Below, piece after piece: positions 34,831-63,806 of a stretch of 64,000 nt of DNA (positions within the stretch are counted from its first letter, which is position 1; every line of letters starts with the position of its first letter). The stretch is from assembly GCF_964213995.1 (NCBI RefSeq), contig NW_027590151.1:558001-622000 (forward strand), read 5' to 3'. The translations under genes and the position numbers were made by a program. The notes beneath the pieces are model-generated. The model had not been told where the DNA came from. It was given only the letters and a program-made list of their open reading frames with translations, and ran no database searches. Source of the DNA: Mustelus asterias (lineage: Eukaryota).

Positions 34831-35469
34831 GATCACTGATAACATCAAAGGACAGTGGCTGAATGACATAATCTCCAAGGTTCAAACCCGAAAAAAAGAA
34901 ATAAGACGGTAGTGGGTTTAAATTTGTGATTCAAACCATGCTTGCGAACAGAGAGAAAATGTGCGACATGTTTTGTCCACAATTCCCAGTCTGGTGAGGT
35001 GACTGCGAGTAAATGGAAGAACACTGAACTGGGATACAATTAATGTCCTTATCGGGGCAAGGTGTCCTTTGGTGTTATTCACATCAGAAGAAAATCCTGA
35101 TCTAGTTATGGTAAGGCAGAGATTCTGGCCCGTAAAAGGTGTCAGGAAACAACAAAGCTCTAAAATTACGCTCGAAATGACAGTGGCATTGTGGGGAAAT
35201 TCAGTAATATTCGCAAAAAAGCATTCACACACTCGCTGTGTGCCGACTGTGATCAAATGGATCGAGAAACGGAAAGGGGAGATGGGAAAGGGCTGGCCAA
35301 TAATTGATACAGTCTAGGAAATAACACCAAAGACAAAATGTCAGCTGACGCACCACCAACTCACTTTGGTGAGTGCCTTCGCTCGGAATTATAATCCATT
35401 TCTGTTACTCTCACTGTTTTACGGGTGAGCGCGCCCTCTGCTGATCACTAACTGGAACTATCAGTGCGG

Positions 35470-35747
35470 TGCTTTTGTCCGGGATCCGCTCTAACTCTGC
35501 AGCAGAAACACAATCGGAGAGAAGCGTCCTGGTGACATTTGAGGAACAGTGTTCCCTTGTACAATGTAGGCAATATTTTTCCACATCCTCCGCGCTATAA
35601 ATCCTCATTAAATACCTCGGAGTTTGGCTGGGATACAGGAACAGAGTAGGGAGAGTAGCTGTCGAGTATTTACAATCCAGCATTATGCTCTGTGCTTGGA
35701 GAATCCTTAATTCAGATTGATCATTGGACACAGAATCATCACTATTT
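35470..35747 (-). pseudogene. TCR alpha/delta V pseudogene (same family as the V at 54.2 kb)
   Basis: Acceptor TTGTTGCAG, then NSDDSVSNDQSELRILQAQSIMLDCKYSTATLPTLFLYPSQTPRYLM. The conserved Trp is lost, FR3 has deletions and the heptamer is deleted. A spacer and nonamer remnant ACAAAAGCA remains at 35478-35470. Confidence 0.85.
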
Positions 35748-36844
35748 CTGCAACAAAACACAGAATGAATCAAATATCTGGGAGTGAAAATAACACTTGG
35801 AACAAATATTCCCCATTTTTTAGTTCGTATTTGTCTGTTTTGCTGCAGCTGTTCTCTGATTGTATCTTCCTCTAAATCTATTCCTGATTCATTCATTTAT
35901 ATCACCGGTTCTTGCTCTGCTTAACTCCAGGTCTCGCCTCCAATTCCAATTATTCAATCCCTCTTGTTTTCTTCCCATATCTCCACCTACATTTCTCCCT
36001 TGTCTCTCCCTTACAGGTTTCAATAACAGATATCCCGCATAATGGGCCATCAGCTGGTGCTCAGGTCCATCGTAATGTTTTGATACTTTGAAAAAATCCC
36101 AGTGGTCATTTTACATTCCACTCCATGGAAGTACTCCAGAATGTGATGCATGTTGCTGTTGTAAGGAGTGAGATTAATCAACAACTTGCAGCCAATACAC
36201 ATAGTACAAATCATGTATATCCAACGCCCAACATATCGACAGACATGTCAAACACTCCCGCATTAATATCAAATATTAGTTTCCACACCAAATGCCGTTA
36301 TTAGTCATTTCCTTGGATATAACGAAACACAGGAGGAATTGCAACATTAAACCGACAGGAATGTTCTCGGTGCCAATATGAAATAATGGATGTCTATGTG
36401 TACATACGATAGGGGAGATCTGAAATAAAAACAGAAAATTGCTGGAAAGACTCTGTGGAGAGAGAAACTGAGCTAAACATTTGCGACTTTGAAACTCCGA
36501 GTTGGCTGAGCAAAGGAGATAATTCTGCCTTTTACTGAAAAGGATATATGAAAATTCTGTCCCAAGGCAACTTATCGAAAACCACACATCAGTGTTGCAT
36601 TTCTACTTTGTCCTCGGTGACGATATGAAAGATATTTACCATGGAAGTAATATATATGATTACGTATTCCATTAAACCTCCATTGACGTCATTCTCCTTT
36701 AATATTCTGGATCGAGGGAATGCAGAAACCAGGAAACGGCAATTAGTGGAATTGCAGCTTCCCGTTTTGATTTTAAGTGAGCAATTTTTGAAGGAGAGTG
36801 TTGACCATAAAAAACAACTTTTTTTTGCATGGACAATTATCGGT

Positions 36845-37132
36845 GGAGTGTCTGCGATCTCTCAATCACAGCAGATATTAACACAAGACAGACAATCGAT
36901 TGAAATCCAGTGAAATACAATCACCTGATGCCCTGAGAGCATCCGCTCGTTCAGCATGCAACAGAACCGTGGCCTGAAATTTGTCATTTCATCTGTTAGC
37001 AGAAACACCACAGACTCTTCAAACTCTTCGTTCACTCAACAAGACCTTTGTCCAGTCCTAATGGAGACAGCACATCGGTATCAGGCGCTGGGGTGTGTTA
37101 CTGTGTCAGTGAGTCACTGAGACACAAAACCC
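36845..37132 (+). pseudogene. Highly decayed V relic
   Basis: ISQSQQILTQDRQSIEIQ* (stop at the expected first Cys), then QQNRGLKFVI (FR2-like), SGAGVCYCV (DxxxYYC-like) and a nonamer-like ACAAAACCC near 37124. Confidence 0.45.
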
Positions 37133-37164
37133 GAACGTAGCAGATAAACTATCCAGTTATATCC

Positions 37165-38012
37165 CGAGGTGATGAGAAGCTTTTTTTATTGGTCGTGGTT
37201 CATCCTGAGCAACTCCGTGACGAAGGACTCTGTGCTCTACGGGCTGTTCCCAGGGACAAACCGAGACAAGCACCAATTGCTGTTGGAGAATTTTCAACTG
37301 GGTAAAATACACCATTTGCCTTCCCGAAACCAGTTGATCTTCATGTGCAAAGAATTGTCCTCGATCGAGTGTTGCAGACAACACATTCCAGGGCACAGGG
37401 CTACCGATTGAGGGACGCACTAAACCTTGGGGCTGTTGCTGCAAAGGCGCAATGAGGAAAACTGCGATCTTTCGACCATTGTGATCTGAGGGGAGCAGAA
37501 CTCTATATGAACGCCCCGTGCTGTTGGACTCACATTGAATGAATGCAGTGAATATTACACGTCTCGCAATTCTACTGAAGCACCTGAGAGTGTAACTTGT
37601 TCAATGTAGACAACCTAAATAACATCGCCCCTCCTGTATTGACGATCTTGAAATATGTATTATGTTCCATTGATTGCACTGAAGCTCTTCAATGTGCAAC
37701 ATTATCTTTGCAGAAAACTTCAGTATCACTGCACTTTCTGAAATGACCATTTTGCAACGTTCTGTAATGTTTCATTGAATGCGTTGAAGCGCGTCAGAGT
37801 GCAAAATTATCTGTGTCCGAAACCTAAACGTTATTGCACTTTCTGTAAAAACCGTTCTGAAAAATTCTGTAATGTTCCTTTAATTATACACAGAGTGCAA
37901 CAGCTTTATTGTCGAAACCTTGAATGTTATTGCACTTGTTGTTATGGCCATTTTGAAGTATTTTGTAATGTTCTTTCAGATACTTTATGAATAAGTTTTC
38001 TTTTGGAAAAAA
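37165..38012 (+). mobile_element. 3' end of a Tx1/L1-type non-LTR retrotransposon with 3'UTR
   Basis: Peptides SVTKDSVLYGLFPGT, RNQLIF..KELSSIECCR and DALNLGAVAAKAQ resemble fish Tx1 ORF2 C-termini (recognised from memory). An AT-rich UTR ends ...ATGAATAAGTTTTCTTTTGGAAAAAA. Confidence 0.65.
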
Positions 38013-38099
38013 GCACAACGTCCCAGTTTGCGAGTTCACAATCCTCACAGCTGTCACTGCTCCCTTCAGTAAGTTGACTACATTGTGAACTACTGGTGA

Positions 38100-50694: not shown

Positions 50695-51675
50695 CTTATT
50701 GAAATTATTCATTTAGTATGAGGGAAGTTTTCCATGGTTTCAGTTGTTGCTGAACATTATCCGAATCTCGATGTTGTAACCATGTTATCTTTGCTCTGAC
50801 CTCGGCCACAAATGCTCTCAGCAACAGCAGAAATGCTGTATTTTAAGACGCAATGAGGAAATAAATGTTTGTACTTTGACACCGTGCGCACATTAGCAAC
50901 TTGTTCAGTCCATAACATAATATAATGGATTTATAAATGCAGACTAACATAGTTAATCATCATCTGAAACATGTGTAATAGTAGTGTGTGCTCATAAAGA
51001 CACAAGTGAAACTAACTGAACTGGAGGAAATGGCGCACATTTCCCGGAAGCATATTTTTAAAATTGTTCTTCATAATAAAGAAATGGGAAAAAAATCACT
51101 CAGGCAGATGAGTAAATCGAAACTCAGTGTAGATCTGCTGGACTTTTCTATAGATGAACGGGAGCTCGGCGCCAGAATGTTTCACATGCAGAATAAAGAG
51201 GGATCAAGTATAACTAGCAAATCATTATTAAATCTTTTCCCTTTAAAGATATTTGATATTGTTTAAAAGCTGACTGTCTCAAATAAGCACCATGGGATGT
51301 GTATTAACCAGTGACTCGATTTCTTTTATTGGTCAGTCATGTTTGCAATTCAATGTTGCATATTCCCGAGATATTCAACTCAGAATGAAGATGTATGTAT
51401 TAAATACATGTATTCATATTTAATATCGAATATCAAAACAAATATTGAGTAACTAGCCAACGATTCAAGTCTGGATGACCCTTCGTCAGAGCTAAGAGCA
51501 AAGAAAAGCAGAAAAGATTTAAATTATGAGGGTGGAAGGGGGATGCTGTAATTGGACAAAGGGAATGCAAATAACGATAAAAGATGGCTGAGAGAGATAC
51601 TAAAAATGTCCATTAAGCGATCAGAATAGCAGAGCAGAGGTAAAGGTGGTTAAGGCAGTTGCCCTGAAAGAGAAG

Positions 51676-51890
51676 TGTGGGGGGGGGGGGAGAGGGGGGG
51701 GGGAGTGAGGGGGGAAGGGGGAGTGGGGGGGAGGGGGAGTGGGGGGGAGGGGGAGTGGGGGGAGTGGGGGGAGAGGGGGAGTGGGGGGAGGGGGGTGGAG
51801 TGGGGGGGAGGAGGGGTAGGGGGGAGAGGGGGAGTGGGGGGGAGGGGTGGAGTGGGGGGGAGGGTGGGGGGAGTGGGGGGGAGGGGGTCG
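51676..51890 (+). repeat. G-rich polypurine tract (GGGGGA/GGGGGAGT repeats)
   Basis: Directly visible ~210-bp run of G-tracts. Confidence 0.9.
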
Positions 51891-51899
51891 TGTCCGCTC

Positions 51900-52275
51900 C
51901 GCCATTCGGTCGTGCTGCAAAATTTCTCATCTCCATTCTTCTCCCCTTTTCCCAGTAACCTTTGATCCCCTTACCAATCAAGAACGTATCTATCTCTGTC
52001 TTAAATACACCCAATGACCCGGCCTCCACAGCCTTCTGTGGCAATGAATTCCACACATTTACCACCCTCTGGCTGAAGAAATTGCTCTCATCTCGATTCT
52101 AAAGGGCCGTCCCTTTATTCCGAGGTTGTGCGCTCGGATCCGAGATTCACCTACTAACGGAAACATCTTCCCCACGGCCACCCTATCGAGGTCTTTCAAT
52201 ATTCTGTAAGTTTCAATAAGATCCCCCCCCCCCCCCCCGCCAAACTCCATCGAGTTCAGACCCAGTGTCCTCAGA
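51900..52275 (-). mobile_element. CR1 3' fragment
   Basis: GDLIETYRILKDLDRV and VNVWNSLPQKAVEA motifs. Confidence 0.8.
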
Positions 52276-53073
52276 TGTCTGCAGTTTTATTTGATCGGCT
52301 TCAGTCGCTCATGTTTGTTGTTGTTTATTTTAAGTTCGGTTTGTGACGGCTTCTCAAGACCATTAATCGCATTGCCTTGTGTCTGACCTGTTTACATTGA
52401 ACTCTTCGTTCTGAACCGTTGATTTCCTCGAGTTGCGAATGTAAATAAAACGGATTGTACAGTAGCGGATTGAGATGTAGATCCCGTGCGAGAAACAGAT
52501 GCAGCAACACAGAAACCTTCAAGCTAAGAAACGGAGGTAAACAAATGGAAAGACAGAGGGTGAATCAGAGGCCGAGACCGTAATAGAAGTAAAGGCATAA
52601 GTTCGGAGAAACAGATGCAGAGGGATAAACACGAGGAACGGGAATGGTAGAAATGAGGGAGAGGCTGAGAGATAAATAGTGGGACAGGCAGTGAGATAAA
52701 TGGGGGAAAGAGGGAGGCAGGAAGGGAAATAGATGAAGATACAGTGAAGGAACCGTGAAGGGAAAAGTTGTATATAGATGGAGGTAACACAGTCGGAGAC
52801 ACAAAGAGAGACAAACGAATAGAGAACAAGAGAGGCAGAGAGATAGGCAGTGAGATAAACAATGGCCTAAATGGTACACTGAGAAAAGCAATGGCCTAAA
52901 TGCGACCAGGAATTACAGAAAGGGAAAGAAAAATAGCACAATGTAGCGTAGTACGTGATACCGGCAGGGTGATTTCCAAGAACCTCTTGACATCCTGAGT
53001 AACCAGACCAGTCGCACCATCACATTGTTATCCTTCCCGTACCCACTGCAGTAAATACACAAACACGGTGCGG

Positions 53074-53089
53074 CAGCGCCATCTGGCGA
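53074..53089 (-). promoter_or_regulatory. CTCF-like motif
   Basis: Reverse complement TCGCCAGATGGCGCTG is a close match to the CTCF core. Confidence 0.55.
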
Positions 53090-53952
53090 CGGTCCGAGGT
53101 CATTTCCTGGAAAATCATCGAATTCTCAAATTACAGAAGGTTGTTGCTGCATGATTATATTACATTACTCTTGTTCATCCTTTTACTATTACAATGCAAT
53201 TAAATGCAGTTGAACGCATACGTGAGGGATAATCCCAACTTTATTTAATTGCTGACGATTCGCTTTATTCAATTAATAGTGGTTAAAAAGCTAATTTTAA
53301 ACAAAATCAACCCATCAATATTCCGATAAGTGCCTCCTCTAAAATACCAACATAAGATGTAAATATGACCCTGGATTCACACCCATTTCCGATGTGCTTT
53401 CGTTATTTTCATTTAAATCTTTCCATCATAATGTTACTTGTTGAGTTATTATATTTTATTATACGTTATCTAATATAAATAGTATCTAATCTAAGAGTAT
53501 CTTTATCTAATATAATGAGCAATTTGGTGGACTCGTTGAAATGGGAGACTGGGAGAAATCGTATTGTCTAAACTCGGAAATTCAGGGAAAAGGGCAGAAA
53601 GAGAAGAACGTGGAGTAAATGTGAAGACAGAGACGGTCAGAAGTAGGGCAAGGGAGGTAGTGGCGGAATGACACAGCGAGATAAACAGGTCCCAAACAAA
53701 GGGAGAGCCGGAGAACCTGAGAAATACAGGGAGAAAGAGAAACTCAGAGTTCATTAGTCCAGAGCGAACACTGATAGGTGCCCGACGACCATCAGTTCAG
53801 AGAGAGCAGCCAATCCTGTCGCTGGGAAACGCCCCTCAGTTTCTGAGTAAGTGAAGTTTCCGCTGATATGAATTTCCAATTTAATATCAGAACAGAAATA
53901 TCAACATGTTTCAAATATTGTCTCATTTCTGCCGAATCCTAAACCAGACACC

Positions 53953-54489
53953 ATGTGCTCCTCATTTTGGTTGCTGATAATAATGGTCTTGCGGCCCGGT
54001 GAGTCAATAAGCTCTGACAAAATGTCATCCTGACACGAAACGTTACCTCTGTTCTCCCTCTCACACATGTCAGATCTGCTGAAGATTTCCAGCATTTACT
54101 TTGAGCCAATGTTTAAATGATCAGCGTCTGTCCCATGGACTATGTTCGCTCCCAGATTTTGAAGAACATCTGTGTTTTATTACAGGGACAAATGCTGAAG
54201 ATTCAGTGTTTCAAGATCGATCTGAATTATCGATTCTGGAAGGACAGAACATAACACTGGGCTGTAAATACTCAACAGCTGCTCTTCGAGCCCTGTTCTG
54301 GTACATCCTGTATCCCGGGCAAGCTCCAAGGCAGCTGATGAATATTTTTAGCTCGGGCGATACCGATAAGCCTCCGGATATCCCAGATAGGTTCTCGGCT
54401 GCTTTACAGAAAGGAAACAACACTGTTCCTTTAAATATCGCCAGCACTCTTCTGTCTGGCACCGCCGTGTATTTCTGTGCCATGGAGCA
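53953..54489 (+). CDS. Apparently intact TCR alpha/delta V gene (leader 53953-53998, V exon 54186-54489)
   Basis: Leader MCSSFWLLIIMVLRP|GTGAGT. V exon GTNAEDSVFQ...LGCKYS...LFWYILYPGQAPRQL...LSGTAVYFCAME. The conserved Asp of DxAxY is replaced by Gly. Confidence 0.9.
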
Positions 54490-54568
54490 CACACTGGTTC
54501 AGAGATATAGCGAAACACGTACAGAAACTCCAGACTGGGAGTTCTAGTTAGTGGACGGCAGAGGGCGC
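54490..54568 (+). other. RSS with 24-bp spacer followed by CTCF-like motif
   Basis: CACACTG (54490-54496) + 24 bp + ACAGAAACT (54521-54529), then ACGGCAGAGGGCGC at 54555-54568. Confidence 0.8.
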
Positions 54569-55401
54569 GCTCACACAGATAAACAGAAACAATTCAGTCT
54601 CAACAGTGAGTGTCACCGCATCATAAACAGAATTACAAAACAAAACACAACGCTCAACATGAACAGCTGAGCCGCAGTTGGTTTTAACTTGTAACCATGC
54701 TAAAAATGCATTTATGATTAATTAACTCACACTTAGCCTTTTGCTGATATTTCCTTGCATATGTGAATTATTCCCTATCTTCACTCTTCGTTTTGTGGTC
54801 GGTTTGATCAAAGGGTCCATTTGATCAGAGTATTATGCTCGCTAAGGGATCAGGTATATAACATGTGCATTTCACAAGGTTGACTGAGAACCATTCAAAC
54901 AATCCCTGAGAGCAAGGTACCATCAATGTTCATTCTCATTTTCAATGACTGTCAACTGTTTTTTGACATAATTCGCAACTTTATAATAACCGGACCAGCG
55001 ACTTTAATCCAACCCCTGTCCCGAACAATAGAGCGATATTCCTATTAAGCCAACTGAATATAACCCAGCTTGGGATGTTTCTGCTCACTGAAAACCACGT
55101 ATCCATCCACAGGACTAAAAACACGACAGGGGACACATGAAAGTGAGGTTCGAGGATCCGATCACATTATAGCAGATTACTAAGAATGTGGATTGGAACG
55201 AGAGTTTTCTTGCGTCAACTTACCCTTTTACAGAGCGGCCAGCGACAAAGTGTAAGGCGGCAATTGGGTTGTATGGGGTGGGGAGGGGAGATTTCGGGCA
55301 GATAATTGTGAAATATACACATTTAATCTCAGTTCCAAATCATGTTGGAGAGTTTAAAAGCACTCCAATCTGATTAGTTCAGATTTTAATATACATTTCA
55401 G

Positions 55402-55535
55402 ATCTGAGTCATGGAAATTCTGTCACTTAGTTACTGTCCTCAAATGATAAGACAGAAGGAGAAGTGTTTTTTTTAAGTTTCACCTATGATATTACATGGA
55501 GTGATTTTGTTTTATTCTGGCATTGTCTACTCCCG
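55402..55535 (+). pseudogene. Truncated V relic, paralogue of the V at 41972
   Basis: TTTCAG|ATCTGAGTCATGGAAATTCTGTCACTTAG aligns with TTTCAG|ATCTGAGCCATGGAGATTCTGTTACTCAG. It has a premature TAG, the first Cys is lost, and similarity ends shortly after TTATTCTGG. Confidence 0.8.
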
Positions 55536-55699
55536 ATGAGCTGCACTTACAGGAAGTCTTAATCATGTCTGCGGACAAGCGGTGAGACAAACAAAAGCAA
55601 CAGCACCGTTCAGGCATCCAAACCTCTCTCAATTTCAATGTGTAGGAAATGGACTCTGAAGAGTTGACCAGAAGAAGGGCTCACGTATGGAGTTTATGA

Positions 55700-55888
55700 T
55701 GAATCATAGAATCATAGAAAAAGAATCCTTACAGTTCAGAAGGGGTGCATTCGGCCCATCGAGTCTGCACTTGCCACAGTCTCACCCAGGCCCTATTCCC
55801 GTCACCCCACACATTTGCCCTGTTAATCCCCCTGACACAGAGGTCAATTTAGCATGGCTAATCAACCTAACCCGCACATCTTTGGACG
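55700..55888 (-). mobile_element. HE1-type SINE 3' part
   Basis: Reverse SINE tail. Confidence 0.7.
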
Positions 55889-56379
55889 GAAAGCAGCCCC
55901 ATCCATGCACTCTGCATCATCTCCGGAAGCTCCTGTCCTGGCTTTTCAATTTTGTGATTCATTTCTTAAAGTTACAAAGTTACAAAGCCAATGCGCAGAG
56001 CGGAGAGGACAATCAAGAACCAATCTCCACACCTGCCCCTACATCAATTAAAATTCAAATTCAACCCAATTGATGATCCCCACAAGAGATATGAGCAAGA
56101 TCCAAGCTGACAAGAGAAGGTATTGCACGTGAACTTGGGCTTTATGCGACGCTTAGTCTTAGCCAAAAACCCGAGAAGTTTGCAGCGGTTAGACTCGTGG
56201 ACAGTTGCAGCCACATTGAGGACCGGCGCTGTCAGCCGCTCAAACAAACACCGAGAGAAACCAAATTAACATTGCATCAAACTGTCACGCACCTGTTTCC
56301 AGCAGTGGCTGAGAAAACAGGCAGCAGAATATGATCAGACCGACAGTTCCATCATCAACTCAGCCTATCGATAGAAAAC

Positions 56380-56692
56380 AGAATCCCTACCGTGCAGAAG
56401 GAGGCCATTCGGCCCATCGATTCTGCACCGGCAACAATCCCACCCAGGCCCTATCCCCTGAACTCCATGCATTTACCCTGGCTAGTCCTCCTGACACTAA
56501 GAGGCAATTTATCATGGCAAATCCACCCAACCCGCACATCTTTGGACTGTGGGAGGAAACCGGAGCACTCAGAGTAAACCCACGCAGACACGGGGAGAAC
56601 ATGCACACTCCACACAGACAGTGAGCCAATGCCGGAATTGAACCCGGGTCCCTGGCGCTGTGAGGCATCAGTGATAATCATTGTGCCACCAT
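56380..56692 (-). mobile_element. HE1-type SINE
   Basis: Reverse complement of the full SINE core. Confidence 0.85.
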
Positions 56693-56754
56693 TTGGCCCA
56701 TAAAAAATTGAAATCATGCAGACTTCCCGCAACCTAACTGAGAACGTTTAATAA

Positions 56755-56822
56755 TGTAGCTGCCCGGTTTCGAACCGGGGACCTTTCGCGTGTGAAGCGA
56801 ATGTGATGACAATTACAGAAAC
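56755..56822 (-). pseudogene. tRNA-Val(CAC) pseudogene
   Basis: GTTTCTGTAATTGTCATCACATTCGCTTCACACGCGAAAGGTCCCCGGTTCGAAACCGGGCAGCTACA has an intact T-arm/B-box, a 5-nt D-arm deletion and a broken acceptor stem. Confidence 0.85.
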
Positions 56823-56862
56823 TGTGAACAACAGAGAGCTTGAACTACCGTCAAGTTTACAT

Positions 56863-56935
56863 CGAGCCAGGCAGAAATCGAACTTGAAACCTTCTGAACA
56901 ATAATCAGACGCGTTGTGCATTGAGCGACTCACCG
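56863..56935 (-). pseudogene. tRNA-Arg(ACG)-derived pseudogene
   Basis: CGGTGAGTCGCTCAATGCACAACGCGTCTGATTATTGTTCAGAAGGTTTCAAGTTCGATTTCTGCCTGGCTCG aligns without gaps to vertebrate tRNA-Arg(ACG) as recalled (GGGCCAGTGGCGCAATGGATAACGCGTCTGACTACGGATCAGAAG...CTGGCTCG). The anticodon is mutated. Confidence 0.75.
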
Positions 56936-57113
56936 ACATGAACGCAGGACCTCCCTGCTTCTGATTAGATCTTTATTCTGCAACCTCAGAGCTGGATATT
57001 CACATCAGCTTCGGGAGAGATGTTTCTGATCAGCTGTTAATTCCCATCAACTCAGGGCTGAATATTCAGATCAGCTCCAGGAGAAATGTTTCTGACCCTC
57101 AGACCAGACCCAC

Positions 57114-57620
57114 TGACGTCACTCGCACTACATAGTGACGTCACATGGGCTATAGGTGACGTCACACATTCTGACGCCACACATTCCGCATTCTGACGTC
57201 TGACGTTGGGCGGCACGGTGCCACAGTGGTTAGCACAGCTGCCTCACAGCGCCAGGGACACGGGTTCGATTCCAGCCTCGGGTCACTGTCTGTCTGGAGT
57301 TTGGATGTTCTCCCCGTGTCTGCGCGGGTTTCCTCCGGGTGCTGTGGTTTCCTCTCACAGTCCAAAGATGTGCGGGTTAGGTTGACTAGCCATGTTGAAT
57401 TGCCTCCTCATGTCAGGGGGATTCGCGGGGTAAAGATGTGAGGTTACAGGGAGAGGGCCTGGGTGGGACTGTGGTCGGTGCGGGTTCAATGGGCCGAATG
57501 GTCTCCTTCTGCACTGTAAACATTCTATGATTCTATGAGTTTCCAATGCCACGGATGCTCTGACGTCAGAATGCCGGATGTTCTGACGTCACAATACCGG
57601 ATGCTCTGTCGCATGCGCAC
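57114..57620. promoter_or_regulatory. CRE (TGACGTCA) array upstream of a V gene, split by an HE1-type SINE (57208-57540, +)
   Basis: Perfect TGACGTCA at 57114, 57136, 57157, 57561 and 57584, with near-matches at 57172, 57194 and 57201. Confidence 0.65.
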
Positions 57621-57819
57621 TCTCCTCCCCCGCACTATCAATTCTGAAGCTCCTTCACTGATTCACTTTGTGATCACAAGTCCCAGCGACCCGGCTCTCA
57701 CCGCCACTCTGTGACTGGTTTGGGGTTCGGTTTGATATCCAATAGCGTTGCTTTCCCAGGAGCTTCTCTCAGCCTGGGATCTGCTGACAGCTGTTTCACA
57801 CAAGCCGATAGGATCCAAC

Positions 57820-58322
57820 ATGTTTCTGACCTTCACTTTGGTGATTATTTTCCTGGATTTATTACTGTTTCCTCAGTGTAAGTGTGGTCACTATTTCTGA
57901 CAGGAATATTTCACACCTCAGCAATGTTAGGCTCTGTTAAATTGTACTCAGCTTTATTATATCATCTCGAATTGTGAATACAATTGTACTTTATTGTGCT
58001 ACATTATAGTACGATATGTTCTTACTGCAAATGTACATATTCTTCCCAGATGCCGCTGGCAGTGAAGAGCTATCACAGTCTCCGGAGTCAGTGGTTGTTA
58101 CCGAGGAAGCCACTGCATCGTTGAACTGTTCAACCACAGTAGCTGGAGAGGTCCTTCAATGGTACAGACAAAATCTAGACAGAACCGTGCAGCACCTGGT
58201 GACCGGTACCAGCGATCAGGGCAGGATCACGGCTCGGCATACTTTCTCAGAGAACCACAGCGTTCTGAATGTTCGTGAAGCTCGGCTGACAGACACCGCC
58301 ACCTATTTCTGTGCAATGGAGG
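57820..58322 (+). CDS. Intact TCR alpha/delta V gene with short CDR2 region (leader 57820-57877, V exon 58050-58322)
   Basis: Leader MFLTFTLVIIFLDLLLFPQ|GTAAGT. V exon ..SEELSQSPESVVVTEEATASLNCSTTVAGEVLQWYRQNLDRTVQHLVTGTSDQGRITARHTFSENHSVLNVREARLTDTATYFCAME. Confidence 0.93.
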
Positions 58323-58361
58323 CACAATGTAGCAAAGACCGTACAGGGCCGTACAAAAACC
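58323..58361 (+). other. 23-RSS
   Basis: CACAATG + 23 bp + ACAAAAACC. Confidence 0.93.
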
Positions 58362-59920
58362 TGCCGCGATCATCCAGAAAGTGGAGCCTGTGCAGAGAGC
58401 TGGGCTTTTAATCACTCTCTCCCTTGGATACGCGCCACAGTCACCCGATCAGTGAGATCTGTTGCCGATTTGGGTTTATTCTTTAAAATCAAAACAGAAC
58501 GGATAAAATACATTTAAATTGGGTTATTTTCTGTGGAAATGTCATCCGGGCAGCGCATGTTCCATGGTGCTTCCAAATTGGAATAATCGTGGTATTCGGT
58601 GAGTCAATATTAAAAGGATCCTTGTCTATTTCCTGTGATAAATCCCATTCCAGTCTGTGACACATTCTAAGTTCGGCTGCAGGGACGAGTGACAGACATT
58701 GAGTTTCCCAGACTCCATCGGAGTTGAACGCTCTGAAAGACCAGTCAGGAGTGCTAAGGGACAGTCACTCCATATCTGAAAGCTTTCTGTACCTATCTAG
58801 ACAGAGCAGTATTCCGGGTAAGTTATGGGATATTTAATGAAGTGGTAGAGGGCCAGACATTGAGATAGGTCCCAAGGTCTCTCGGACCGGTTCGCTGTTG
58901 ACTTGAACGAACAAAGACAGCAATGCACCTGTTCGATAAATAAACGACCAAGTCATCCCATTTTCACAGAAAAGTGGACAGGGATCGATAAATGTTATTC
59001 ATTGCACTGCCACTTGTTACCATCTGGAGTAGAGCGCCACAAACTATAAAGGAAGAGCATTCAATAGTAAATTTCAAAAAGGCATTGCCAGACCTTGAGA
59101 ACGGAAAACAACTCGTGGAATGCGGGGTGAGAAGAGCAATTGGGAAAGATCTTTCATTGAGCCACAGGGAGAGTCAATTGTTTCTGATCCATTCGCGCCC
59201 GTCCGTCACTATTTTTTCTCAGTCACTTGAGCAGTCAGCAGATGCAGGCTAGTCACAGACTGCTGCAGGTTCAGCCGCCGCTATTTCCTCTCCATCACCT
59301 GCGACTGCCGCTGAGAACTCCGCACTTCCATCAGCTTTGAGTCTGCGGTGACCCCGGCCACAGTTTCCGGTTGCTGCTTTTCATTCTAACACCATTGTGC
59401 TTTTCGAGACATTGCTGCCGCTGGTCGATTTCTGTCATTGGTTAGATCAGAAGTTCAGTGCTTCAGTCTATTCATTAGTGTAGCAAGTAAGCTTATATAA
59501 ACACTGCAGTGAAGTTACTGTGGAAATCCCCTCGTTGCCACACTCCGGCGCCTGTTCGGGTCCACTGAGGGAGAGTTTAGCATGGCTGATTAGCGACTGA
59601 TTCAGGAAGTGGTGCGTGGTACTGTCGGATAATACAGCCTTTTTAACGAGGTGAGTCTGTGTTGAAATTATTATTGAGCAATCCAAGTATTCATAACTAC
59701 AGCAGACTTTGACACATCCAATGTTTGGTTCTAGGAATTGCTGGCGCAATCTCAGTTAACGGCCCTGGAAGATGATATAACAGTAATTTTTGGCTACATG
59801 ATCTCTACATCTGGGAGCTTGCATTACCGCTGCTCTGAAGTAGATTTGGAGGTTAACTGCATGCATTGCGCCATAAAGATATGTCTCATGATTTCGCAAT
59901 CTGTTCCTCTGGTGACCTAG

Positions 59921-60245
59921 ACAAGATGTGGAGATGCCGGCGTTGGACTGGGGTAAACACAGTAAGAAGTCTAACAACACCAGGTTAAAGTTCAACAGGT
60001 TTATTTGGTAGCAAAAACCACGAGCTTTCGGAGCGCTGCCCCTTCGTCAGGTGGGTGGGAGTTCTGATCACAAACAGTGCACAAAGACACAAACTCAATT
60101 TACATGAATAATGATTGGAATGTGAGTCTTTACAGCTAATCAAGTCTTAAAGGTACAGACAATGTGAGTGGAGGGAGCATTAAGCACAGGTTAAACAGAT
60201 GTGTATTGTCTCCAGACAGGACAGTTAGTGAGATTTTGCACAGGT
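59921..60245. mobile_element. Interspersed repeat end, probably Penelope-like
   Basis: AACACCAGGTTAAAG..CAACAGGTTTATTTGGTAGC..GAGCTTTCGGAGCGCTGC recurs in reverse at ~33335-33395 and ~40872-40948. Family assignment is from memory only. Confidence 0.5.
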
Positions 60246-61257
60246 TTTGCCACACTCTCTGACAGAGATTTTGCATCGAGAGACAGAGGGAGAGTGTGTG
60301 CGTGTGTCCTTGTGTGTGAGAGAGTTCAAAGTAACCTTCAAATACCTGGACTCCGCAATCTCTTTACTCCAGGATCAGTGTGGCAACCCTGTCTGACAGA
60401 GAATTAAACATTCCCACTGTATTCTGTGTTAATAAAGTTTCTAACATCACCACAGCACGACACTGGAAATGAGCTTCCTTGGGTTAGAAAGTGCTTTTGG
60501 ACATCGGAAGTCTGTAAAAGGCATCAATAAAAATCTTTACTGCTGTTTTCGACTGAAATTTATTTCTGGAGATTAAATTCATTGTCTTCATATTTCCACG
60601 GCCAGAAAAGTTTATTTTTAATTTCATTTTTTAAATTTAAATCCGTTTCTTTCCCGGATTGGGTTAATGAGTGGCCACCACTTCCTAGGATTTCCCGGAT
60701 TCTGTCTCCAGTCGGTTCAGATATTCTTTCCGCTCCAGAGGACACAGGCAGTCTGGCAGGAATAAGAATCCGGGAACTTACCGAGGGGACAGTGCCGTGC
60801 TCAGGGAACGCTGCACCTTCAGAGCTGCCAGCCACTCGGTGACCTGTTCAATCGGGGGCACCGTGTTCCCTCTCAGTTGGAGGTGACACATCACATGGTC
60901 ACTGTTTCCAAGAAGAGCAGAGAAATGTCCTGTTTGATATCTGTTCACCAATCACAATTACTGAAACAGAGAGAACACTACAATATTACTGAATGAAATG
61001 TCACACTGAGTCCAAATTGGCTGCTGTGTTTTCCACAGTGACAGGGAAACACTTTGGGACATCAAACTGTACAAATAGTGAAATGTTCATTCCCTAAGCT
61101 GCCCCCATTGTTTTAGTTTGGTAATATATTTATTATTAATACATATATATATTAGAATTAAAAGTTTGAGATAACAACACGATTTCAGGTTCCAGATCAG
61201 ACTCACTCTGATCACAATGTTTGCCTAACGCTCTGTTGTGTTGAGTGAGGCTTTGGC

Positions 61258-61296
61258 AGTTTTTGTGCAGGTTCAGCCCAGCTCTGTGTCTCTGTG
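61258..61296 (-). other. 23-RSS
   Basis: CACAGAG (61296-61290) + 23 bp + ACAAAAACT (61266-61258). Confidence 0.92.
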
Positions 61297-62147
61297 GGAC
61301 TCAGTGCGCAGTAATAAACCCCGGAGTCTGTCAGCTCTGTTTTAGACACTTTCAGCGGGACTGTGCGGGTTGTATCATTGAGTTCCGCTGAAAAACGGTC
61401 CCCTTTGGATCTCCCTGTGTTCCCGGTGTATTTATTTGTGTGCAGAAGATACTTCATGGATCCGCTGGGATACTGACGGTACCAGAATAGATAAAGGTCG
61501 CTGCTTGTACTTGTGTAATTACAGAGCAACCTAACATCATCTCCTTCAGTGACGGTGACTGCAGCCGCTGTCTGTGAAACAGAATCTCCTCGGGAATGTC
61601 CTGGAAAAGTCCAAAGAAATATTAAATTAAACATTGTGACTTGACTCCGTTTCCCCCAGAATTCGCCCGTTATCGGCAAAAATAATCTGAGAGAGAAGGT
61701 TCAGCGGCTGGATTGGGAAGTTTTTGTGGCGATTCAATAAAACTTCCACGATAAACATTGTTCTTTCTAACGAGATCAGTTCCTCGACTTCGGTCCCTGT
61801 AACTGGAAACTGCTCACGGTCTGTTTGAAGTGTGATGTTTGCCAAAGTGATTCACTGGTATCAGGGGAGCTGGAATCTGAGCCCAACTCATTCTCTATCA
61901 ATCCCTGGGGGAAATGTGCCCAATCCCAACAGTGTCCAGTGATGAGACCAGCGAAATCCGGATAACTTTTCGATGTTGAGATCAATCCGTTCCCTCATCA
62001 CCGACCCCCTCCCCCTCGCATTGAAGGAACTGCCTGACAGAATATAGTGTGTGGTAATGATGTGTAACACAGACTTGAGCAACTTGTGAAATTACCGGTT
62101 AACAGAGCTGCCGCTGTGAGGAATAAATACCGAGTAACAGGAGACAT
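61297..62147 (-). CDS. Intact TCR alpha/delta V gene (leader 62096-62147, V exon 61297-61600)
   Basis: Leader MSPVTRYLFLTAAALLT|GTAATT. V exon GHSRGDSVSQTAAAVTVTEGDDVRLLCNYTSTSSDLYLFWYRQYPSGSMKYLL...DSGVYYCALS. Confidence 0.93.
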
Positions 62148-63429
62148 GTTTGCAGAGAGCTCGCGGCGGATCTGACCAGAGCGGGTGGGAGATGTCATTG
62201 TTTCAGTTAAGAGTTGAAAGAGGCGGAGTCATATCCAGGCCCCTGTGGATTGGTTCACTGCTGGAAACATCATCAGATGACATCCAATCGGCTTCAAGCT
62301 CCTTTGTTCTTCAGTTCACCCAATGATCTCACAGCTCCTTTATCTCCAATTCACCCCATAGGCGGAGAGACGGAAGGAACAAAGTGAAGTTGGCCATCCC
62401 ACGGCAGGGGATTATTTTCCTCTTCAACAGTTATTTCATGAACCGACCGGTCCCCTGAGTGTTGATGGGTCTGTTCTGACATGGAGAATGACAATGTTCA
62501 TCCCTACAGCAACATGTCAAGCAGTTTGTTATCGATCATGTTTGGGACAGCAGCTACAGTGCGGGGGAGGATGAATTTTTAGTTGAAACATGTACTTCAC
62601 AAGAAGTGGTAGAATAATGAAGAGTCTGTGATATTTCCATACGATCTTCCCTCAATTTGTAACTTTGCCGCCTGTGAAATCCTCTTTCAGAGTGGAAGTA
62701 TAGCTTGCCACGCCATTGGACTGCTGATCCAATCGGTGCCAAACAGGGAAAAGCAGCAAAGGTCAATATCTACAATAAAATCTCTAATAAAACAACACAG
62801 ATGAGGCAGGTCAAAGTGAGAACCACACAGGAAAGCTGTGGGTGTGGCTGCCATAGGCAGTGTGGTGAGATGTAGAATTTATCTGCAAGGAATTGAACTC
62901 AATAACACTATCACATTGGAAATCATATAAATTTGCCTGTCTGTAGGAGCGGCAGCTGAATGTTCATTCCATACCGCGGACCAACAGTCTCGCACCAGGA
63001 AGGTCAGGGTTAGTAAATGATCCAATACAAAGCGGGATCTTCATCAGTGATGTAGATGGAAAGTGGGACCGAATAGCTGAGTAGCTGGATTGGAGAGGTT
63101 CTCAATGAATGTACGAGGTAACAGAAAAAGCTTTAAATGTTTACGTTAAAGGTTGGGGAAGGGAAAGGGACACAATTTCCATAAATCAGCAGACAAGGAC
63201 AGTCTGGGACAAATAGGCAGGGAAAGGCATCGAAAACCAAAGAGAAGGCGTTGATGTATCTCAGATCGATTTGTCAATCTTAATTCAATTGCACATGTCA
63301 GTTACGATCATTGACAAATATAGCTGCAATGGGACCACACCAGTTGCTGTTTTTGAGTGTTGTCATTTGTTGCAATGTTAAGAGTTTTCGACACTCTGTG
63401 GAAACTGTATTACCTGCGATAATGTGTGA

Positions 63430-63502
63430 GCGCACCCTGCTGGGCACTAACTGGAAGTCTGGGGTTTTTGCACGGCATTCACTATATCTCTGCAGCAGTG
63501 TG
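63430..63502 (-). other. RSS with 24-bp spacer followed by CTCF-like motif
   Basis: CACACTG (63502-63496) + 24 bp + GCAAAAACC (63471-63463), then CCAGCAGGGTGCGC at 63443-63430. Confidence 0.8.
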
Positions 63503-63806
63503 GGCTTCGTGGCACAGAAGTACACGGCGCTGTCGTAGATCAGTGTGTTACTGATCGTTAGTTCGGTAATCGTGTTCTTTTTATTAAATTTGGAAGAAAA
63601 CCGATCATTGAGGTCGGTGTTCCTTTGCACGTTCTCACCTATAAGCTGAAACATGTACACTGGAGCTTTCCCGGGCTGCTGACTGTACCAGTACACATGA
63701 GGGCTGGAATCGCTTGTTTTCAAGGTACAGGTTAGTGTGACATTACTTTCCTCTTTAACCGATATTTCAGGATCCATTTGTTCCACTTTGTCTTGGAGGG
63801 TCCATT
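63503..63806 (-). CDS. TCR alpha/delta V exon, open frame (leader not seen, presumably beyond the window end)
   Basis: Acceptor TTTCTGTTAG, then WTLQDKVEQMDPEISVKEESNVTLTCTLKTSDSSPHVYWYSQQPGKAPVYMF...DSAVYFCATK. Confidence 0.9.

Follow-up and report, generated by a model that had tools for sequence, protein, structure and literature searches.

Why should variable (V) gene segments whose coding regions differ widely carry much the same sequence behind them? The question is raised by 64,000 nucleotides of Mustelus asterias DNA (contig NW_027590151.1, positions 558,001 to 622,000; G000:C119:558001-622000 in our numbering, hereafter the window). A first-pass annotation had noticed here a module made of a CACACTG heptamer, a 24-bp rather than 23-bp spacer, and a CTCF-like motif beyond the nonamer of the recombination signal sequence (RSS), and had read it as a cassette conserved or exchanged independently of V coding sequence. 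The V segments of the window encode V-set domains nearest to T-cell receptor (TCR) alpha, with named relatives in catshark and horn shark. The explanation that works best as a whole, and which we hold with slightly better than even confidence, is that the module is an old element of one V branch, in which a predicted CTCF site behind the RSS would raise contact with the recombination centre formed by the joining (J) segments of J-alpha.

Two copies in the window define the module, and both were found where they had originally been placed. On the plus strand, the V at 54.2 kb (family F0) has a leader exon (53953..53998) running from ATG to a GT donor and an open V exon of TCR-alpha type (54186..54489), in which Gly replaces the usual Asp before the YFC motif. 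Its RSS (54490..54529) consists of CACACTG at 54490, a 24-bp spacer containing CAGAGATATAG, and the nonamer ACAGAAACT at 54521. The extended CTCF motif behind it (54537..54568) comprises an upstream motif (54537-54545; upstream consensus in PMC12885311), a linker, and a core (54555-54568) that starts 25 bp beyond the nonamer and has 2 mismatches to the consensus CCASYAGRKGGCRS. On the minus strand, the V at 63.5 kb (family F1; open V exon 63503..63806, leader outside the window) has CACACTG at 63502, a 24-bp spacer, and the nonamer GCAAAAACC at 63471 (RSS 63463..63502). The core of its CTCF motif (63430..63462; core 63443-63430, 1 mismatch) lies only 19 bp beyond the nonamer because of a 6-bp deletion, which also destroys the upstream motif and is private, being common only to the near-identical copies of this gene. 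The distance of 19-25 bp first reported thus stands at both ends; the proposed spacer core fared less well, CAGAGATATAG being exact in just 18 of 43 module genes. An assembly error as the source of the 24-bp spacer is ruled out by 58 genomic copies and by exact contigs in two sequencing runs: the RSS and core of the 63.5-kb V show 0 differences in contigs from runs X8 (193 bp) and X9 (139 bp), possibly the source of the assembly itself. The RSS regions of both genes also have 100% identical copies on contigs C119, C106, and C90, and that of the 63.5-kb V is present twice on C119 in inverted orientation; these copies would be either very recent segmental duplications or unpurged haplotypes.

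A third copy has lost its gene end. In the F0-like pseudogene at 35.5 kb (35503..35760, minus strand), a 19-bp deletion between two CTG triplets took the 3′ end of the V and the heptamer. The orphan flank (35431..35502, minus strand) retains a 24-nt spacer, CAGAGTTAGAG, related but not identical to the shared one, a damaged nonamer, ACAAAAGCA (35478-35470), an intact upstream motif (35462-35454), and a core with 1 mismatch (35444-35431). The broken V at 43.7 kb (43681..44032, minus strand) was rightly recognized as a coding relative of the 54.2-kb V that lacks the flank: it belongs to F5, the sister family of F0, and has a damaged heptamer, an intact nonamer (43689-43681), and no CTCF flank. 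Its intact relatives (n = 6) combine CACACTG with a 23-bp spacer and lack the CTCF motif. The remaining four Vs of the window (42.3, 45.1, 58.3, and 61.3 kb) have 23-bp spacers and no site.

How general is this arrangement? A census of 857,549 bp of TCR-alpha tiles yielded 147 V hits, of which 131 were kept and 16 dropped (two of these being module-bearing pseudogenes). A module was called by mismatch scoring rather than with a position-weight matrix, allowing the core up to 2 mismatches to CCASYAGRKGGCRS, which PMC6746451 quotes as the genome-wide consensus. Such a scan of V 3′ flanks, which the first-pass annotation had advocated, found a conserved RSS-adjacent element on 43 of 131 Vs, not an unbiased fraction, as the tiles were partly picked around module hits. 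Spacers of module genes measure 22 bp (14 genes), 24 bp (28), or 26 bp (1), and none of the 76 census Vs with a 23-bp spacer carries the module; among the 12 Vs that lack both, nine spacers are 21 bp, one is 22 bp, and two are 24 bp. A Fisher test on these counts (43/12/0/76) was not used as evidence, since the genes stem from few lineages. A second, targeted sample contained one F0 gene (contig C436) with a 23-bp spacer plus the site. In this genome the site thus goes with off-length spacers and a non-consensus heptamer, but its coupling to 24 bp is not obligatory: the site occurs with 22, 23, and 26 bp, and family F10 has 24 bp without it. Nor is CACACTG by itself the hallmark it was taken for, as 16 of the 57 Vs with this heptamer combine a 23-bp spacer with the absence of a site. 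The one 26-bp spacer (G000:C546:35716) arose by a 4-base insertion in an otherwise intact F0 gene, its CTCF site unchanged.

Position is more constant than spacer length. The core stands exactly 25 bp from the nonamer in 38/43 module copies (23 bp by Ciccone's measure, again in 38/43, and 17 bp in the two deleted copies only). Core sites with at most 1 mismatch number 72 in the 857,549 bp against 7-10 per shuffle (5 shuffles), and 38 of the 72 share the strand of a V and fall no more than 110 bp 3′ of its heptamer. Genome-wide, CACACTG-N24-RCAAAAACC has 67 matches, 58 with the shared spacer, against 2 for the reversed control, and the pattern of upstream motif and linker has 96 exact matches (44 forward, 52 reverse; control 0), all on contig C71 or on small contigs. 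Open frames are found in 34/43 module genes, and heptamer and nonamer are separated by 22 or 24 bp in 42/43, which fits the 23-RSS (23 ± 1) pattern, and by 26 bp in one.

The flank is likely an extended CTCF site, as predicted from its layout on the V strand: a 9-bp element, a 6-bp linker, TGN, and the core. In the extended CTCF site an upstream motif lies 2-7 bp before the TGN-core, a range that includes the 6-bp linker. This two-part motif has been reported from lamprey to human (PMC5504073) and raises CTCF binding and insulation (PMC12885311, PMC11417384). The cores have 0-1 mismatches to CCASYAGRKGGCRS in 37/43 module genes and at most 2 in all 43, with none of the 88 other Vs under 3; two copies match perfectly, and 30/43 cores are within 2 mismatches of mVH-CTCF. 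The upstream element is within 2-3 mismatches of CTGCAGTTCC, the consensus for zinc fingers (ZF) 9-11 (PMC12885311), in 36/43 module genes versus 2/88 control Vs. Among 14 F0 genes, 0/32 motif positions vary versus 5/22 spacer positions; among 16 F1 genes, the figures are 4/32 and 5/24. F0 genes have a further peculiarity. In 12 of 17 intact F0 genes the opposite strand carries a second core, ~1.4 kb 5′ of the heptamer in all but one gene (1.7 kb there); 11 of these cores have no more than 1 mismatch. The 54.2-kb V is among the 12 (53076..53089, minus strand, 2 mismatches, ~1.4 kb upstream). Because this upstream core opposes the RSS-side core, such F0 genes sit between a divergent site pair. 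No opposite-strand upstream core occurs within 2.2 kb of F1 genes (0/17). Families F8 and F9 have CTCF sites upstream on the same strand.

The distribution of the site among V families speaks to its history. The 98 intact Vs of the census form 18 families, and the site is found on F0 (17 genes) and F1 (17) only. With the last 12 residues excluded, F0 groups with F5 and F1 with F10, and the four form one clade (support 86/79); the coding regions described as dissimilar are indeed so, the V bodies that carry the module being only ~52% identical in DNA, yet both lineages fall within a single V super-clade. Within it, a clade of F0 plus F1 is rejected on V bodies by the approximately unbiased (AU) test (p 0.0022 on protein, p 0.00015 on DNA). 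Each of the 56 copies anchored on the module follows an F0-like or F1 V, with 0/56 on other V families, so a freely mobile cassette is ruled out. In F10, the sister of F1, the spacer is 24 bp and the flank is a colinear, decayed copy of the site (p 0.003-0.018, uncorrected).

The 3′ ends tell a slightly different story from the bodies. RSS identity between F0-like and F1 genes is 85-93% (37/40) versus 49-55% (113/231) for the body, and exceeds that of F0-F5 (74-77%, 29/39) and F1-F10 (78%, 31/40). Informative quartet sites favour the coding tree by 33-39 to 1-2 in the body and are about even (4:4) in the last 50 bases. A Ser codon, AGC, is common to F0 and F1, with TCT in their sisters F5 and F10 (the unrelated F9 also has AGC). 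The lower-bound divergence of the F0 and F1 3′ blocks is 4-10/72 (F0-like/F1 4-6/72) at a body divergence of 0.33; horn-shark F1 and the F1 described here differ by 6-7/72 in the block and by 0.18 in the body, about half the F0/F1 body distance. The F0 and F1 3′ ends are thus more alike than their bodies predict, which suggests an old 3′-end exchange. Probably, then, we are dealing with an ancestral element under constraint plus one old F0-F1 gene conversion, which would have begun ~36 bases before the heptamer. The site would have been present at or near the base of the super-clade; selection would have preserved it in F0 and F1, while it decayed in F10 and became absent from F5. A similar pattern is seen in F12 and F15 (C71:13685956, C315:381103), with 3′ end and spacer 0.83-0.95 identical and bodies 60%, and 3′-end homogenization may be general in the locus.

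Evidence from other species adds depth in time. In read-through gene models, the frame of the nonamer gives the spacer length; the decoder used for this was correct in 97/98 control genes and separates site-bearing genes (joint mismatch 0-3 in 33/34) from others (at least 6 in 64/64). In horn shark F1 (P0002) the spacer is 24 bp and the site lies at 24; skate F0 (P0007) has a site with a 22- or 23-bp spacer, the F0 protein P0016 a perfect core with 23 bp, and bamboo shark F1 (P0013) a partial site with 23 bp; in each of the four, 0/500 shuffles were as good. P0132 has 23 bp and a core with 1 mismatch. Bamboo shark F5 (P0008) has a 23-bp spacer and no site, and chimaera P0155 has a CACACTG-compatible end (EPTL) with 23 bp, its flank being unreadable. 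P0006, identical over 105 residues to copy L025, was left out as independent evidence. The extended site is in no bony-fish or tetrapod read-through (best joint mismatch at least 5 outside shark-type genes). By this evidence the F1 site with its 24-bp spacer would predate the split of horn shark and Mustelus, and the F0 site the split of sharks and skates. The splits concerned are ~200-300 million years old. The module is, judging from these translated flanks, ancient and not tied to 24 bp. As an aside, 42 of 97 RSS-compatible V read-throughs imply 22-bp spacers, mostly with YKN-frame ends typical of fish-like TRAV, and in some bony-fish families this length may be standard.

The strongest competing history has the site born on either F0 or F1 and transferred to the other lineage, together with the RSS and the 3′ end of the V, by an ancient crossover or conversion, F5 never having had it; the proposed function would be unchanged. 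The rejection of F0 plus F1 on bodies in the face of nearly identical 3′ blocks, the common AGC codon, blocks as close between F0 and F1 as between horn-shark F1 and F1, and the like sharing of a 3′ end by F12 and F15 would all follow from such a transfer. Against it, a 24-bp spacer and a decayed site are already present in F10, the sister of F1, distant species have the site on both lineages, and the chimaera gene already ends in CACACTG-compatible EPTL; the block tree does not require an exchange, and similarity between F0 and F1 ends with the core (tail 0.40-0.48). We consider this history rather unlikely. The earlier idea of exchange apart from coding sequence survives as a moderate signal of old F0/F1 3′ homogenization, while ancestry plus loss fits F5 and F10 at least equally well.

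A second alternative takes the sites for general architectural or insulating anchors that ride with duplicated V units and do nothing to the adjacent RSS, the spacers being tolerated drift. In its favour, a search with the coding part of the 35.5-kb pseudogene returned 22 copies, and the core is intact in 21 of 22 such heptamer-less copies; in addition, another 34 strong sites are not next to an RSS, many of them standing at a constant position upstream, the site also occurs with 23-bp spacers, and a deviation of 1 bp costs RAG only moderately in one study cited in PMC7753069. However, retention in the pseudogenes is not significant. In the heptamer-less copies 0/23 positions of the site segregate versus 31/270 elsewhere (p 0.15), and the site is affected by deletions in three copies; the idea that these pseudogenes are under selection for it was dropped, a first alignment having been inflated by misaligned copies. 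The distance to the nonamer, moreover, is held at 24-25 bp across species, and the same design boosts usage in mouse. We regard the architectural account as improbable. In two F0-like pseudogene lineages (window 35503-35510; C71:11134745, C119:493074), V end and heptamer were apparently lost through the same kind of microhomology deletion at the same place, and one lineage was amplified to at least 22 copies. Finally, a flank unbound by CTCF, whose conservation reflects another factor or else hitch-hiking and conversion, is very improbable: F1 cores do miss a consensus G and one study found motif scans by themselves to be poor predictors of sites (PMC5504073), but the motif is in two parts with the correct linker, two copies match the core perfectly, and variation among the 14 F0 genes avoids it.

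If the old-element explanation is right, what would the site do? Contig C71 (20.4 Mb) carries the same V families over at least 6.5-17.8 Mb, followed by a J cluster of 34 segments at 18.37-18.41 Mb, 33/34 with 12-bp spacers, and a C1-type exon. Module copies on C71 lie at 6.5, 11.0-12.4, 13.7, 14.8, and 17.8 Mb, with most copies on unplaced contigs. The module follows the orientation of each V, and both strands are used on C71 and inside single contigs. Since C71, which bears the J cluster, has module genes on either strand, one-way RAG scanning, the mechanism first invoked, cannot use all of them. In mouse, CTCF-binding elements (CBEs) within 20 bp of weak proximal heavy-chain V (VH) RSSs impede scanning and lift usage far above that of the RSS alone (PMC11153149), and CBE-anchored loops with diffusional synapsis have been shown for Trbv1 (PMC10772921). 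About half of the shark sites face away from J, and we therefore propose that they would act as loop anchors aiding orientation-independent, diffusional capture rather than as pauses in one-way scanning. CTCF bound 24-25 bases behind the RSS would stall cohesin-driven loop extrusion and so raise contact of the V with the J-alpha recombination centre. With contact so increased, the quality of the RSS would be under weaker selection, and CACACTG and spacers of 22-26 bp could persist in intact genes. The module RSS is probably somewhat weak, despite good nonamers: a spacer off by 1 bp cuts joining moderately to strongly (second-hand in PMC7753069), and 12-RSSs with a pyrimidine at heptamer position 5 are disfavoured about twofold (PMC9723617). 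Pairing of 24-bp V signals with 11-bp J signals was excluded, as spacers are 12 bp in 33/34 and 63/65 J-like matches.

Several observations about J segments and joints stand beside this. Two J-alpha arrays with different J sequences are present, C71:18370833-18419700 (34 segments plus C exon) and C546:137570-180000 (~63), the latter only 75 kb from module-bearing Vs. They may represent two haplotypes that have diverged, or TCR-alpha may have a second J cluster. On G000:C8:50177248-51077770, 19 perfect 12-bp RSSs are spread over 0.9 Mb and both strands, all with an identical spacer; they probably represent immunoglobulin miniclusters. No V-J joint occurs among the listed loose ends of four contig sets, and no J-joined F0 or F1 protein among 171 proteins. 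Runs X1 and X5, presumed to be RNA, yielded fragments only, one loose end (organism B) weakly implying a 24-nt spacer.

A number of points weigh against the old-element explanation. CTCF binding, J contact, and V usage are all predictions from sequence, and the cross-species evidence is back-translated protein, not DNA. The association of spacer and site comes from two lineages, its counts not independent, and is crossed by the 23-bp spacers with site in C436, P0016, and P0132 and by F10 with 24 bp and no site. Module-gene nonamers are better than average (perfect in 30/43 versus 38/88 others), F1 cores have T where the consensus has G, and the window copies at 54.2 and 63.5 kb are both degraded. 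The super-clade support (86/79) is not starred. Neither local alignment nor a profile (p 0.06-0.21) gives significant evidence of a deleted remnant in F5; for this reason, and because bamboo-shark F5 is already without the site, loss in F5 follows from the tree only. In the comparison of flank and body trees that had been recommended, the 3′-block tree neither shows nor rejects exchange (AU p 0.36; F0 and F5 still on one side, 54/92).

The closest known parallel is the RSS-associated CBEs of immunoglobulin heavy-chain (IgH) VH genes (7183, Q52; VH5-2/VH81X; PMC6746451, PMC11153149). In both systems the CTCF consensus lies on the V strand at a fixed short distance, is restricted to V-family clades, and is linked to non-ideal RSSs; in mouse the sites stand 17-19 bp behind the nonamer, follow VH clans, and are nearly all in one orientation (PMC6746451). 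Unlike them, the shark module sits on TCR-alpha Vs at 23 bp, versus 17-19 bp in mouse or 19/48 bp in human, has an upstream motif, occurs in both orientations to J with 22- and 24-bp spacers, is kept in many pseudogenes, and, compared with mouse, has copies from 6.5 to 17.8 Mb of the J-bearing contig and so is apparently not confined to the part near J. V-linked CTCF sites are also present in mouse Tcra/Tcrd and Tcrb (PMC5859386, Table 2), where the F0 upstream site finds a counterpart in the promoter-side sites of Tcra. By that table, however, the mouse Tcra/d sites are upstream or intergenic (129/144 face J-C) and two Tcrb sites lie near an RSS, whereas the shark has an RSS-side site on about a third of sampled Vs, and its F0 genes are bracketed by a divergent pair. 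In having Vs and CTCF sites in both orientations, which implies inversional joining, the locus resembles the diffusion capture of mouse Igk and Tcrb (PMC11153149, PMC10772921); yet no mouse Vkappa has an RSS-proximal CBE and Igk relies on strong RSSs, in contrast to the off-consensus RSSs with RSS-side sites here. In listings from a library with few subscription papers we found no report of CTCF sites at shark TCR RSSs, although supplementary shark RSS tables might hold spacer lengths, and the accessible portions of PMC5931798 and PMC12227049, used as background on shark loci, hold no CTCF data. New here are the spacer-length census, the confinement to one super-clade, the decayed F10 copy, the divergent F0 upstream site, and a measured, though equivocal, F0/F1 exchange signal.

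RSS-side CTCF sites have so far been known from mammalian IgH and tied to one-way RAG scanning. A bolder synthesis, offered tentatively and more doubtful than the explanation it extends, would make such a site older than the mammalian IgH translocon. In this synthesis the site would have let an off-length 24-bp CACACTG signal survive in intact TCR-alpha genes of elasmobranchs since before the horn-shark split and would have been passed between lineages, along with the 3′ end of the V, by conversion; orientation-independent anchoring would tune V usage in a mixed array of more than 11 Mb, and the divergent pair of F0 would keep one site facing J in whatever direction a gene is duplicated. The locus holds matched controls for such ideas: F0 genes at 22, 23, 24, and 26 bp, the sister family F5 without the site, and F10 with a decayed one. 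If the explanation is true, these genes would show, as a natural experiment, whether such sites can work in the absence of linear scanning and whether they buffer weak RSSs, and CTCF-guided V choice would date to early jawed vertebrates.

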